Notes under the pieces: model-generated
Database searches by the model: none
Seen by the model: only the letters and a program-made list of their open reading frames with translations
Told to the model about the DNA's origin: nothing
Shown: positions 18,577 to 46,624 of the stretch, one piece after another
Position numbering within the stretch: the first letter of the stretch is position 1
Layout: the number at the start of each line of letters is the position of its first letter
From: a virus
Lineage: Duplodnaviria > Caudoviricetes
Direction: 5' to 3' (one strand)
DNA length: 64,000 nucleotides
IMG/VR virus record: IMGVR_UViG_3300044656_000027
Span: 47,290-111,289 of that record
Program-made: the position numbers and the translations under genes

Positions 18577-18618
18577 ATGGTTTCCTTAAGTCAGATATCT
18601 ACTAGATATGATACCGCA

Positions 18619-20196
18619 TTACGATCTGCGTCTATCATAGAACGGATTATTGCTGACTTCGATCTCCTCTTGTACTGACTCAGGAATGATACTGAGTGCA
18701 ATAGCCAGAGAGTCACAATAGTCATCGTGAGCATTGGCTTCCTTCGGAGCCTCAGCCAACATGTATGGTCCTTCAAACTTCACCTGTAGGTCAGACATTT
18801 GCTGGATGAAGTTACGGTATGTACGCAGAGAACGTGTCTTAGCGTGAGCGGGCCAACCGATCTTGCCTCTATCGATTACTTCACGAAGGTACTTCCAACG
18901 ATCAGACTGTGCCTGTCGCTGTGAGGATACATCGATAATTTCTATATGAGGCAATAATACCCTAAGTCTGTCAACAACTAGGTCACCCATTCCACCTGAG
19001 TCAACTCCAATTGCGAATACATTGTATTTCGAAACGAATTCAACAATTCGGTGATACTGTGTTTCCCAATCTTGTCCCTGTAAATCAAGCCAATTAAGAA
19101 CTCGGCAATTGTAATATCCGAATTCATCTCTGTGCTCCCAGTCAACAAACATAGCTGTGACAATAGTGGAGTCGATCTTACGTGCAGGGTCAATTCCAAT
19201 AACGATAGGAGTAGTGTAGTAAGCCTTCACTGTCTCCATAGTCTTATCTCCAAGCTCATCAAGGCGCTCGGAGGTGGTAAACATTCCCTGTTCCAGAAGC
19301 CACATGAGGCGGTAGGACAGCTTGAATTCGTCTGAGTCGTAACCCATACGCAGCATGTCTCCCGCTACAGCCTTCTCATACTTCTTATTCCACTTGGATA
19401 CTTCCCTGTAGTCAGCTTCGTAGTGGTTGGTACGAGCTCCGCGCTTAGTGGCATTACGCTTGTTCTGCTGAATCTGTCGGTAGAAAACACCCTTCTCATA
19501 CGTGGGTGTTCCAGTCATGATGAAGGTACCGGCAGTAGAAGCAAGCATCGGGCGAATTGACTTGTCAACAACTCTCTGGTCGGCAACCTGTGCCTCATCC
19601 AAAAGAGCGATGTGATAAGTCTTACCTTCAATAGATGCGCGAGGGTGAGCTGTCTGCCTGCGTACTAGAGAGCCACACTTCTCTAACTTGATCTCAGCTC
19701 CCTTACCCTTGATACGATCATCAATACCAGGGTCCAGAAGAATTGCTTGCGCGCGCTCGGATGTCAGCATGGACACGATACGGCTAAAGAGGGTCTTAGC
19801 CATGTCGTCAACGGGTGCGAAGGCTCCTACCCATACGCCTTCCTTGAAAGAGTCCAGAAGGTCTGCGTAGCGCTCCAGCTTCGCTAATCTGGGAAGCATG
19901 ATCATCATCGTAGCAATGGCAGCCGATACTGTCTCAGTCTTGCCGCTCTGACGGCTAAAAAGGGCTGTCACAGTCGCGTTGTCGTTGATGATGACCGATT
20001 CCATGATGCGCGCTGCAAAGGGTCTCTGATAGCCATACAGAGGGTGTCCTGACAGCTCGTCGGCAAAGATCAGCAGCTTCTCCACCAAGAGATCCACGGA
20101 TGCCTGAGACATCGGGTCTAGTTCGATCTTGGTGGAGTTGAGGGCTTCCAGCTCTTCGGTTGTTAAATCTTCATACGTTTCGTCGTACATTGTCAT
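18619..20196 (-). CDS. terL: Terminase large subunit
   Basis: Walker A SRQSGKT, Walker B LLDEAQ, TGTP, nuclease GIDPAR and DDYCDS; start set at AGGAG-preceded ATG. Confidence 0.93.
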   Translation of the reverse strand: MTMYDETYEDLTTEELEALNSTKIELDPMSQASVDLLVEKLLIFADELSGHPLYGYQRPFAARIMESVIINDNATVTALFSRQSGKTETVSAAIATMMIMLPRLAKLERYADLLDSFKEGVWVGAFAPVDDMAKTLFSRIVSMLTSERAQAILLDPGIDDRIKGKGAEIKLEKCGSLVRRQTAHPRASIEGKTYHIALLDEAQVADQRVVDKSIRPMLASTAGTFIMTGTPTYEKGVFYRQIQQNKRNATKRGARTNHYEADYREVSKWNKKYEKAVAGDMLRMGYDSDEFKLSYRLMWLLEQGMFTTSERLDELGDKTMETVKAYYTTPIVIGIDPARKIDSTIVTAMFVDWEHRDEFGYYNCRVLNWLDLQGQDWETQYHRIVEFVSKYNVFAIGVDSGGMGDLVVDRLRVLLPHIEIIDVSSQRQAQSDRWKYLREVIDRGKIGWPAHAKTRSLRTYRNFIQQMSDLQVKFEGPYMLAEAPKEANAHDDYCDSLAIALSIIPESVQEEIEVSNNPFYDRRRS

Positions 20197-27392: not shown

Positions 27393-27396
27393 AAAG

Positions 27397-27473
27397 AGCG
27401 CAGCAGGAGAATCGAACTCCAAACCAATCGCTTTGCAGGCGATCCCCAGACCATCCGAGTTAGGACACTGCGC
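27397..27473 (-). tRNA. tRNA-Cys(GCA), enlarged D region
   Basis: atcgc-CTGCAAA-gcgat; U discriminator. Confidence 0.8.
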
Positions 27474-27478
27474 ATAAG

Positions 27479-27558
27479 TGGAGCTGCGGGGATTCGAACC
27501 CCGGTGCTGATAACTTCCGACATGCGGTTTTAATCACCAGACGAAACCAACCAGCCCC
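27479..27558 (-). ncRNA. Minimal tmRNA-like RNA (tRNA-like domain only)
   Basis: GGGGCTG/CAGCTCC-A acceptor with G3.U70; GGTTTCG loop without D stem; P2-like helix; T arm; no tag ORF. Confidence 0.75.
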
Positions 27559-27655
27559 ATTGTGTCTGGCCTCATACGGGCTATTACCAGACTTGAAGTG
27601 CCCAGAGCCCGCACTTAGGGCTACTGTCCCGTAAAGGAATCTCGTCAGATTCCAG

Positions 27656-27726
27656 TACCCAGTGAGGGAATCGAACCCCCGCATGTGGTGTGTAAAACCA
27701 CTGGTCTCCCATTAACCTAACCGGGC
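27656..27726 (-). tRNA. tRNA-Val(TAC)
   Basis: gtggt-TTTACAC-accac. Confidence 0.88.
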
Positions 27727-28398: not shown

Positions 28399-28953
28399 TT
28401 AGTCCCACCACATAGCCTTAGCATATAGTGGATTCTCTTCTATGTCAACGTCCCACCAGTTATCAACCTCAGCCCAACGCCAGATCGTTCCCCAGTCGTC
28501 GTATCCATTAGGTACTTCGATAGCAGAATTTGGATCAGTGTCAGCATGGTGTCCCATGTAGTTAATAGCCTGCTTGAGTTGCTGCTTGACGTTGTGTCTG
28601 CGAGCCTGACTTACAGCCTTCTTAGCGCCGTGTCGTGGCCAACCGTAGCCTATATCAGTTGCGTAGTATTTGCAACCATCACGCCAACGATTGTGCGTAT
28701 GTGTCATTGGCTCATCAATATTACAAGGAACTTCCTCAGTCCAACGATCCCAGACGTGAACGGATTCTTGACGCTCTGGAATCTTGTAGTAACGCATTTC
28801 ATCCCAATCCCAAACATACTTGGAAGGGATGGTAGTTACATCCGTACGAACATACTCTCTTCGATGACGCAGATGATTATGGACAGCCTCACGGCGTTCC
28901 TTAGAGTCATTAGAGCGAACCCAGTAAGGACGATCCTTGCGAGTGCGGGACAT
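28399..28953 (-). CDS. Hypothetical basic/Trp-rich protein
   Basis: GGGAG RBS; MSRTRKDRPYWVR N-terminus. Confidence 0.6.
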   Translation of the reverse strand: MSRTRKDRPYWVRSNDSKERREAVHNHLRHRREYVRTDVTTIPSKYVWDWDEMRYYKIPERQESVHVWDRWTEEVPCNIDEPMTHTHNRWRDGCKYYATDIGYGWPRHGAKKAVSQARRHNVKQQLKQAINYMGHHADTDPNSAIEVPNGYDDWGTIWRWAEVDNWWDVDIEENPLYAKAMWWD

Positions 28954-31435: not shown

Positions 31436-31469
31436 AAGGTTTTGCCTCCCTTATATTGGTTATAAAACG

Positions 31470-31541
31470 TGGAGCCACGGGGAATCGAACCCCGAACTTC
31501 GGATTGCAAAACCGATGTGTTTCCGTTAGCACCATGGCCCC
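31470..31541 (-). tRNA. tRNA-Ala(TGC)
   Basis: G3.U70; loop TTTGCAA. Confidence 0.9.
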
Positions 31542-32999: not shown

Positions 33000-33344
33000 T
33001 TATTCCAATTCAGTAATCGGTATCCAGCCCTTGCCCTCACGGCCCTCTACTAGAAGGTTACGAGGCTCCATGTCTCTGGCTACTCTGTCTTCAACCTTCT
33101 CAAGCCCATGAAGGGTCCTGTGTGTCCATATGCGGAACTTTGAGGACTCTGCCATACGTCTGAATGCCAAACGCTTGTTGATCAGCTGAGAGCGCTCCTC
33201 ACGGCTTTCACCTACAGCACCGGAAGGCTTATGAATTACTCTTACGCCCGTTTCGCGCTTATTCTGATTCTGACCACCCTTTCCTCCTGAACGGAAGGTT
33301 TGGACCTCACAATCATGAATAGTCACGCTAAATGCTTTTTCCAT
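33000..33344 (-). CDS. Peptide chain release factor (RF-1/GGQ) domain protein, ArfB-like
   Basis: [26 protein letters not shown]...ERSQLINK. Confidence 0.9.
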
Positions 33345-45595: not shown

Positions 45596-46624
45596 ATGAT
45601 CATGATCACTGGAGCTCGCAAGGGTGGCGCAGTTCGCCACTACGCGCACAGTGCAGACGCGCACAGCCTGTGCGGCCGGTACATGATCCCTGGCATGGGT
45701 GAGGCTCTTCGTGACTGCCGTTCGTGCGTGCGTATCGGCAAGCTTGTTGGACAGGGTGCCAACGATCTTGAGCTGTTGGCCGCTACTCGTTACAACGGCA
45801 ACGTTGCTCACGTGCGTGAGGTAATCGCTAAGCCGCTCACGTCCTCCCGTCGCTCGTTCCTTCGTGAGATCTTGCGAGACACGTCCGGTGACCTTGACCC
45901 CGCTTGCCGTGCGCTTTACATCCTGTGGCTTGAGTACGCGCCGAATGCCGGTATCGACGCGGGCATGTACGCGGACCCTAAGCGTGTCTCTCGCTCTAAC
46001 CCGAATGCGGGAATGATCGATCCGAAGAACGCTCGTCCGGCGCGTTCCATTCTCACGGACAATCAGCGCAACGCGCTCATCCGCATGAGCAACTTTGAGA
46101 ATTCCCTCATTGCGCAGATTCGAGAGGCAGAGGGCAACGAGATTCCGGAGTTGTCTCCGGTCGGGGATGAGTTCTTCGCAAAGCTCGCCAATCGCACTGA
46201 GATTGACAAGGCTTTCACCACGATTTCCGCGAGCATTGACAAGCTCAAGGCGCGGTTGTCTGAGGTGAAGCGCGCCGCTCGTGTGGCCGCACCTGTTGCC
46301 CCTAAGGCTGCATTCAAGGCAGGCGAAATGGTCAAGGGTGGCGTTTACGAAATGGATGGTGAGCTTTACCGCTACGCCATTGCACAGCGCTCCGGTTACG
46401 CCTACGCACTCAAGTGGAATGGCAGTGAATGGGATTACGACAGTGCGCGTGGCATTGTCCGCAAGCTCACTCCCGAAATGGCTATCAGTGCGGAGCGCGC
46501 TAAGGAATTTGGCCACACGCACCACTGCTGTGTCTTCTGCTCTCGCCCGCTGAACGACCCGCGTAGCGAGGATGCCGGTTACGGCTCCACCTGTGCGGAC
46601 AACTATGGTCTTCCTTGGGGCTAG
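45596..46624 (+). CDS. DUF6011-like Zn-finger protein
   Basis: C-terminal CVFCSRPLNDPRS..AGYGSTCA. Confidence 0.7.
   Translation: MIMITGARKGGAVRHYAHSADAHSLCGRYMIPGMGEALRDCRSCVRIGKLVGQGANDLELLAATRYNGNVAHVREVIAKPLTSSRRSFLREILRDTSGDLDPACRALYILWLEYAPNAGIDAGMYADPKRVSRSNPNAGMIDPKNARPARSILTDNQRNALIRMSNFENSLIAQIREAEGNEIPELSPVGDEFFAKLANRTEIDKAFTTISASIDKLKARLSEVKRAARVAAPVAPKAAFKAGEMVKGGVYEMDGELYRYAIAQRSGYAYALKWNGSEWDYDSARGIVRKLTPEMAISAERAKEFGHTHHCCVFCSRPLNDPRSEDAGYGSTCADNYGLPWG

Follow-up and report, generated by a model that had tools for sequence, protein, structure and literature searches.

We identified an 80-nucleotide RNA gene in the tRNA array of a bacteriophage genome that encodes the tRNA-like domain of transfer-messenger RNA (tmRNA) without a tag reading frame. 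This mini-tmRNA is of the kind published for the mycobacteriophage DS6A, and it belongs to a large, conserved and for the most part unannotated phage family that goes beyond the literature record; the literature we searched describes neither the size nor the conservation of the family. A tmRNA reduced to its tRNA-like domain had originally been predicted at this site, and its sequence, strand and coordinates are as that prediction gave them. With a probability of roughly 55%, we propose that the RNA is charged and vies with host tmRNA for both SmpB and stalled ribosomes, a role for which we infer expression, charging, binding and the effect on the host. The evidence for the gene, its family and its possible functions is described below.

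The stretch of DNA that we analysed, 64,000 nucleotides long and called the window here, belongs to a viral record of 111,289 bp that carries direct terminal repeats and has a G+C content of about 48%. The nearest cultured relatives of this phage are the Streptomyces phages BRock, GiJojo, Alone3, LuckySocke and Mandalore, and the sequencing runs listed for this stretch are of DNA from soil and rhizosphere. ARAGORN predicts 32 tRNAs in the window, and the mini-tmRNA gene lies inside this array, where we infer that it is co-transcribed with the neighbouring tRNAs. Sites resembling promoters or terminators are no more frequent near the gene than in shuffled sequence. The phage genome contains neither an SmpB gene nor a Pth gene.

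The Rfam tmRNA model (RF00023) matches positions 27476-27558 on the minus strand with 58.2 bits (gathering score 47; E = 3e-20 for the whole 64-kb window). As had been anticipated for an Infernal search, both ends of the model are matched and the interior is skipped: the alignment extends from model position 1 to 374. It includes the tRNA-like domain from end to end (acceptor stem, G3.U70, discriminator A, D-loop analogue and T arm), so that the likeness to bacterial tmRNA (SsrA) comprises this entire domain and the start of helix 2. In contrast, the roughly 290 internal model positions that are passed over correspond to what bacterial tmRNA has and the mini-tmRNA lacks, namely pseudoknots 1-4, the resume codon and the tag frame with its stop. 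The alignment, a reading of the sequence and ARAGORN all place the resume codon, tag frame and stop codon among the missing elements. No stop codon occurs after nucleotide 29 in any frame, and there is thus no terminated tag frame, as originally proposed. PK1-PK4 are likewise absent, and the approximately 18 nucleotides between the strands of helix P2a form a single 3-bp hairpin that occupies the place of the pseudoknots and tag frame. Lacking the messenger domain, the RNA has no means of performing the messenger part of trans-translation. Across the 111,289-bp record the mini-tmRNA is the only above-threshold match of tmRNA type, and a full-length tmRNA is found nowhere in this genome.

Several other identities were considered and rejected. 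The mini-tmRNA is not a canonical tRNA-Ala, having no D stem or anticodon arm, and ARAGORN calls neither a tRNA nor a tmRNA at 27479-27558. The normal tRNA-Ala(tgc) that was expected separately near 31470 was located by ARAGORN at 31469-31541. This true tRNA-Ala scores 29.5 bits on our covariance model of the mini-tmRNA family (R1) versus 85.5 bits for the mini-tmRNA, whose sequence was itself part of the R1 seed. A Ro-like protein in relatives prompted us to consider a Y RNA or YrlA; however, the ends of the RNA pair into an acceptor stem whose 3' end is free, and the Rfam Y RNA families give no match in the window at the gathering threshold, nor in the mini-tmRNA region at E values up to 10. 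A fragment of an attP site was also dropped as an explanation, as the tRNA-like domain is complete at both ends, which make a free acceptor end.

Table 1. Coordinates in the window of the mini-tmRNA, its structural elements and selected neighbouring genes. RNA nucleotides are numbered 1-80, with nucleotide 1 at window position 27558.
Feature	Position	Strand	Basis or remark
Whole mini-tmRNA gene, 80 nt (tRNA-like domain, P2a, P2b stub)	27479..27558	-	RF00023, R1
Acceptor stem 5' strand, nt 1-7, including G3	27552..27558	-	Sequence; pairs fully with 27480-27486
D-loop analogue, nt 8-18, unpaired, GG then UUUCG(U)	27541..27551	-	Alignment to Rfam consensus
Helix P2a 5' strand, nt 19-26	27533..27540	-	Pairs with 27507-27514; covariation
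Capped 3-bp hairpin, nt 32-42, equivalent of P2b stub	27517..27527	-	Second P2 segment of Rfam model
Helix P2a 3' strand, nt 45-52	27507..27514	-	Sequence, covariation
T arm, nt 56-72: 5-bp stem, 7-nt loop UUCGAAU	27487..27503	-	Sequence, Rfam alignment
Acceptor stem 3' strand, nt 73-79, including U pairing with G3	27480..27486	-	Sequence
Discriminator A80	27479..27479	-	Sequence; CCA not encoded, next bases CUU
tRNA-Val(tac), upstream neighbour	27655..27726	-	ARAGORN; marks slot Val, mini-tmRNA, (Cys), Ser(gct)
tRNA-Cys(gca), atypical, downstream neighbour	27396..27473	-	ARAGORN; begins 5 nt past mini-tmRNA discriminator
RF-1-domain protein, 114 aa, intact GGQ motif	33000..33344	-	PF00472, 59.3 bits vs cut-off 35; phrog_3122

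The structure of the mini-tmRNA consists of an acceptor stem, an unpaired D-loop analogue, helix P2a with its hairpin cap, and a T arm (Table 1). All seven acceptor pairs (1-7/73-79) are standard, and G3.U77 is the equivalent of G3.U70, so the alanyl identity that was noticed at the outset, G3.U70 with discriminator A, lies in a fully paired stem. The D-loop analogue holds GGUUUCGU, and this loop, which was recognized from the start as replacing a D stem, aligns where the Rfam tmRNA consensus reads GGaUUCGA. A P2-like helix had also been described and is present; however, it was given as 7 bp, and we count eight pairs (19-26/45-52), a U.G pair included. P2a is followed by an internal loop and then by the hairpin (32-34/40-42) with its 5-nucleotide loop, and the triplet CAC precedes the T arm. 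At the base of P2 the window copy carries U and C (GUC ... GCAC), unlike most members, which have A and G (GAC ... GGAC); this combination also distinguishes it from the DS6A RNA. The U is accompanied by C in 12 of the 13 family cases in which it occurs, and the U/C combination is a recurrent variant rather than damage. When folded as a single sequence the RNA has a z-score of -2.46, and the minimum-energy fold is an alternative pairing that differs from the structure supported by covariation. The real support for the structure comes from covariation in the family rather than from the fold of one sequence.

Ten related sequences, comprising the window, three cultured phages (GiJojo, Alone3 and BRock) and six IMG/VR contigs, have the mini form in one and the same slot of the tRNA array. 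The order in this slot is tRNA-Val(tac), mini-tmRNA, sometimes tRNA-Cys, and tRNA-Ser(gct). The copy in LuckySocke is identical to that of GiJojo, and pSt2308 carries a copy too. Among the related copies acceptor pair 4 is G-C, G-U or U-A and pair 5 is C-G or U-A, the T stem exists in four different versions that are all fully paired, and P2a has been rewritten in sequence with its pairing kept. The original prediction had recognized that an intact tmRNA in relatives could mark the short form as a recent deletion remnant. However, searches of the whole records of GiJojo, Alone3 and BRock yielded only the form of approximately 80 nucleotides, in the same slot, and no full-length tmRNA. Because the slot is conserved, the changes are compensatory and these three relatives have no full-length form, the mini-tmRNA of the window is not a deletion remnant; it is most likely a working gene.

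Model R1 recovers the BRock copy at 81.4 bits. In Alone3 four pairs of the RNA are broken and the D-loop analogue is altered; this copy falls below the Rfam threshold and scores 62 bits on R1 versus 81-91 for the other related copies. This copy appears to be decaying, and its four broken pairs indicate that the gene can be lost or can decay. In the five cultured BRock-like phages, and in the Streptomyces phage Shaeky, the mini-tmRNA is either unannotated or overlain by a coding sequence. The 'hypothetical protein' gp44 of GiJojo (stretch L006, 25157-25399) starts 2 nucleotides upstream of the mini-tmRNA and spans all of it; a shorter frame, beginning immediately after the RNA gene, seems more probable.

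The neighbouring genes in this slot have peculiarities of their own. The tRNA-Cys(gca) is 78 nucleotides long with an oversized D-arm region and discriminator U, and the Rfam tRNA model covers it partially with 19.9 bits. Sequences resembling tRNA-Cys are located at the same site in GiJojo and Alone3, both unannotated, and the BRock counterpart is an annotated tRNA-Cys on the opposite strand. Alone3 also has an unannotated tRNA-like sequence between tRNA-Val and the degraded mini-tmRNA (stretch L007, approximately 18590-18712 on the minus strand). It has an acceptor-like start, a good T arm and an insertion of about 60 nucleotides in the middle, and may be an interrupted or intron-bearing tRNA.

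The closest precedent is the RNA of DS6A, which was named in the original prediction and is indeed listed as 'Mycobacterium phage DS6A (TLD only)' by Hudson, Lau and Williams in 2014 (PMC4131195) and as tmID 11587 in the tmRNA Website. This sequence comprises little beyond the tRNA-like domain of tmRNA (PMC4131195). The part of that paper that concerns its activity, citing Mao 2009, describes strong inhibition of tmRNA by a molecule similar to that of DS6A, perhaps through titration of SmpB, and a passage of PMC11915505 that cites the same work states that endogenous tmRNA of E. coli is inhibited by the RNA in its DS6A form. The 2025 tmRNA database contains nine entries classed as 'standard, no CDS' among 97,179 sequences (PMC11915505). 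Model R1, which was built without the DS6A sequence, matches DS6A at 28478-28557 with 64.7 bits (E = 4e-15), and it also detects the copy in Shaeky, a temperate phage, at 89.3 bits. Both the window and the DS6A genes are phage-encoded and approximately 80 nucleotides long, and their products share an acceptor stem carrying G3.U70 and A73, the D-loop analogue of tmRNA, helix P2a with its capped 3-bp stub, and a T arm, with no tag frame and no pseudoknots. On the evidence of sequence and predicted structure under one covariance model, the two can be assigned to the same family. Their settings differ: in the 60-kb mycobacteriophage DS6A it is alone between protein genes, whereas the window copy resides among 32 tRNAs in a large, tRNA-rich phage whose kin grow on Streptomyces.

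Natural tmRNAs that have been cut down to the tRNA-like domain, and that are thought to act with SmpB, are also known from organelles, where tmRNAs without a coding sequence are found in jakobid mitochondria and, at approximately 65 bp, in Mallomonadaceae plastids (PMC11915505). However, an organellar RNA of this kind is the organelle's own sole tmRNA and is derived from a full tmRNA there, whereas the phage mini-tmRNA comes as an addition to the complete tmRNA that the cell already possesses. Phages can also encode full-length tmRNAs, often in tRNA arrays, as in cluster C mycobacteriophages (e.g. Bxz1), cluster BE Streptomyces phages and prophiGD54-2, and some of these are accompanied by a small RF-1-domain protein homologous to that of the window. 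In contrast to the mini form, these RNAs are about 370-390 nucleotides long, have an annotated tag peptide and are detected by ARAGORN. A paper on anti-CRISPRs (PMC11662646) was set aside as a precedent; it concerns fragments of host tmRNA and not phage mini-tmRNAs.

Scanning IMG/VR viral contigs with a pattern that describes both ends of the RNA yielded at least 119 stretches, with 84 distinct sequences among the matches listed. Among these listed matches the RNA is 75-82 nucleotides long (mostly 77-80), the contigs range from 29% to 71% G+C, a tRNA is nearby in just 27 of 120 loci, and ARAGORN makes no call. The same two-ends pattern found 28 stretches in 185,579 bacterial and archaeal species, each represented by one genome, and nearly all of these stretches are on contigs of metagenome-assembled genomes. 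Given this difference between viral contigs and species genomes, the mini-tmRNA is overwhelmingly a phage feature. Annotation pipelines based on ARAGORN miss such genes, and the Rfam tmRNA model finds them. In all 50 of the larger viral records that carry the gene, RF00023 detects the form of about 80 nucleotides, above threshold in 47; it is the sole form in 49, and one record has a full-length tmRNA (392 nucleotides) in addition.

Base pairing was examined in an alignment of 48 members with D-loops of equal length, leaving out a 114-sequence alignment with misaligned 5' ends. Standard pairs occupy 97% of cells in the 48-member alignment, and both partners have changed in 16 of the 21 pairs. 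Covariation scores 0.669 in this alignment, compared with 0.14 for shuffled alignments and at most 0.135 when pairing partners are slid (n = 48). The acceptor helix was partly selected by the search pattern; P2a, the cap hairpin and the outer pairs of the T stem were not. Among these 48 members P2a has compensatory changes at all six pairs counted, the cap hairpin is paired in 88% of cells with compensatory changes at two of its three pairs, and the three outer T-stem pairs covary with 100% of cells paired. Acceptor positions 4-6 also covary across the family, and the GG and UUCG of the D-loop analogue are invariant or nearly so.

A second scan of viral sequences was anchored on the D-loop analogue and T loop only, leaving the acceptor free and thereby avoiding the bias of the first pattern. 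It recovered at least about 120 stretches, and a perfect 7-bp acceptor stem is present in 85 of 95 distinct sequences among the matches listed. Where six or more acceptor pairs form, again among the matches listed, G1-C72 occurs in 87 of 88 sequences, G2-C71 in 84, G3.U70 in 85 and the discriminator A in 86. In the same scan, pairs 4, 5 and 6 exchange freely among G-C, C-G, U-A and A-U. G3.U70 and A73 are the identity set for alanyl-tRNA synthetase. The SmpB-binding surface comprises the D-loop analogue, the T arm and the base of P2, and EF-Tu binds the acceptor-T arm. Since G3.U70 and A73 are nearly invariant while neighbouring pairs covary, the pattern of conservation points to selection for alanine charging, beyond mere folding. 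It similarly argues against a purely passive SmpB sponge, and a pure decoy would leave the strict retention of G3.U70 unexplained.

No conserved protein gene flanks the mini-tmRNA, the commonest flanking family being present at 15 of 145 loci. In the lineage that has this family (L089, L042, L121 and about 12 more viral loci), the mini-tmRNA is embedded in a head-morphogenesis operon on the same strand, after the prohead protease gene and approximately 116 nucleotides upstream of the major capsid gene.

According to the model that we favour, the mini-tmRNA would be transcribed with the surrounding phage tRNAs, excised by host tRNA-processing enzymes and given its CCA by the host. Host alanyl-tRNA synthetase would charge it through G3.U70 and A73, and host SmpB and EF-Tu would bind it as they do the equivalent domain of tmRNA. 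It must rely on host factors, because the phage has no SmpB gene and the family has no recurrent flanking partner. Having neither resume codon nor tag frame, the RNA would add no SsrA degradation tag, and its competition with host tmRNA would mean that fewer of the proteins synthesized in the infected cell are tagged and broken down. Tagging is known to be triggered when ribosomes stall at codons that the host seldom uses, and in E. coli it is well established that too little tRNA for rare codons leads to tagging. A benefit to the phage is plausible, given that its codon usage is far from that of Streptomyces, that it has 48% G+C and 32 tRNAs of its own, and that the hosts of its cultured relatives are high-G+C Streptomyces. 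However, blocked ribosome rescue could leave ribosomes trapped and thereby harm the phage, and a record that carries a full tmRNA as well as a mini-tmRNA is odd if the sole role of the mini form is to shut down trans-translation.

The main alternative is a rescue RNA that adds no tag, which had been put forward originally beside an SmpB decoy; it may involve the RF-1-domain GGQ protein encoded in the same array. The match of this protein to the ArfB model is weak (22.5 bits versus a cut-off of 100, over the first 37 residues). The gene is part of a 1.4-kb stretch of three open reading frames between tRNA-Leu(tag) and tRNA-Leu(caa); these two tRNAs are approximately 40 nucleotides apart in GiJojo, with no open reading frame between them. 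The best homologues are in mycobacteriophages, namely WXIN (69% identity), prophiGD54-2 and cluster C phages (54-55%), and tblastn against the phage collection found none in Streptomyces phages. The cluster C phages and prophiGD54-2 that encode homologues carry full-length tmRNAs. In prophiGD54-2 (L213, 5992-7870) the homologue is followed by one tRNA gene and then by an RtcB-like RNA ligase gene, in an array that holds the full tmRNA, an arrangement that recalls the bacterial PrfH-RtcB pairing. Genes for RF-1, Pth and tmRNA have been noted together in mycobacterial tRNA arrays (PMC5966550). A general link between mini-tmRNA and GGQ protein is ruled out: the protein is absent from all five cultured carriers searched (GiJojo, Alone3, BRock, Shaeky and DS6A) and from 48 of the 50 larger viral records that carry the RNA, and WXIN encodes the protein with no tmRNA of either kind. 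In the window itself, the GGQ protein is a possible associate of the mini-tmRNA.

We regard it as possible, although tentative, that the alanylated mini-tmRNA enters the empty A site with SmpB and EF-Tu, accepts the nascent chain and leaves a hydrolase to release it with one alanine added. The hydrolase could be the phage GGQ protein, host ArfB, or Pth after drop-off, and the outcome would be recycled ribosomes and proteins left unmarked for destruction. Such an activity would agree with the alanine identity, whose near invariance suggests that charging matters, with an acceptor-T arm that is intact for EF-Tu, and with the presence of the GGQ gene in the same array, of its close homologues beside full tmRNAs, and of RF-1, Pth and tmRNA genes in the mycobacterial arrays. 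However, an RNA without resume and stop codons offers no template after peptidyl transfer, so a second factor would be needed. Given its distribution the GGQ protein cannot be a general partner, the phage has no Pth gene, and the protein matches the ArfB model weakly. The narrower proposal that the phage itself runs such a pathway, with host SmpB helping the charged RNA to take the chain and release falling to the GGQ protein in the window and to ArfB or Pth elsewhere, is doubtful. If it were true, phage proteins from stalled ribosomes would escape the SsrA tag, the family would represent a minimal natural version of the first half of trans-translation, and phages would possess a widespread counter-measure against a core quality-control pathway of the host. 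Rescue and competition overlap, as in both the charged RNA enters the ribosome.

Other explanations were also considered. The RNA might be a ligand or decoy for different proteins that bind tRNA-like domains, such as the SPB domain of CoCoNuT defence systems, for RNase R regulation through SmpB, or for toxins directed at the acceptor end of tRNA-Ala. SmpB-like domains that bind tmRNA have been predicted in defence systems (PMC11090510), and the mini-tmRNA is specific to phages with contigs of very different G+C. However, this idea explains conservation of the alanine identity no better than competition does, and we judge it unlikely. A carrier of alanine for a non-ribosomal reaction, for example a cell-wall or lipid aminoacyl transferase with no involvement of SmpB, would account for an alanine identity that is kept in the absence of an anticodon arm. 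This is very unlikely, as the D-loop analogue, the motif preceding the T arm and helix P2 are specific features of tmRNA, an acceptor minihelix would suffice for such enzymes, and the phage already has a normal tRNA-Ala. Least credible for the family is a functionless, decaying remnant of a full-length phage tmRNA. Full-length genes do exist in other Streptomyces phages (cluster BE) and the Alone3 copy is degraded; in contrast, the size is constant at 75-82 nucleotides, covariation is strong, position is conserved with compensatory changes between related copies, GiJojo, Alone3 and BRock have no full-length form, and hundreds of copies occur in unrelated phages. Competition with host tmRNA by a charged RNA remains our preferred reading.

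These results show that BRock-like Streptomyces phages carry a kind of RNA that has been published for one phage, and the cultured members, which can be grown on laboratory strains, allow direct testing of what it does. The large size of the family, its phage-specific nature and the apparent selection on its alanine charging suggest that interference with trans-translation is practised by many phages. The family would also be a natural tool with which the tRNA half of tmRNA function can be separated from the mRNA half.

Two unusual arrangements were observed in the wider collection. The one larger viral record with both forms is 123.6 kb long and low in G+C; it has a full-length tmRNA (77588-77979), in which ARAGORN calls a tag, and a mini-tmRNA (46486-46567). 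The two have identical T stems and T loops that differ by one base; their acceptor stems differ, both encode CCA, and they seem to be non-redundant. In addition, forms of 68-70 nucleotides without the cap hairpin are present on five genome contigs (L185, L189, L196, L197 and L181), which were binned to Saccharibacteria, Peregrinibacteria, a metagenome-assembled gammaproteobacterial genome and an unclassified bacterial one.
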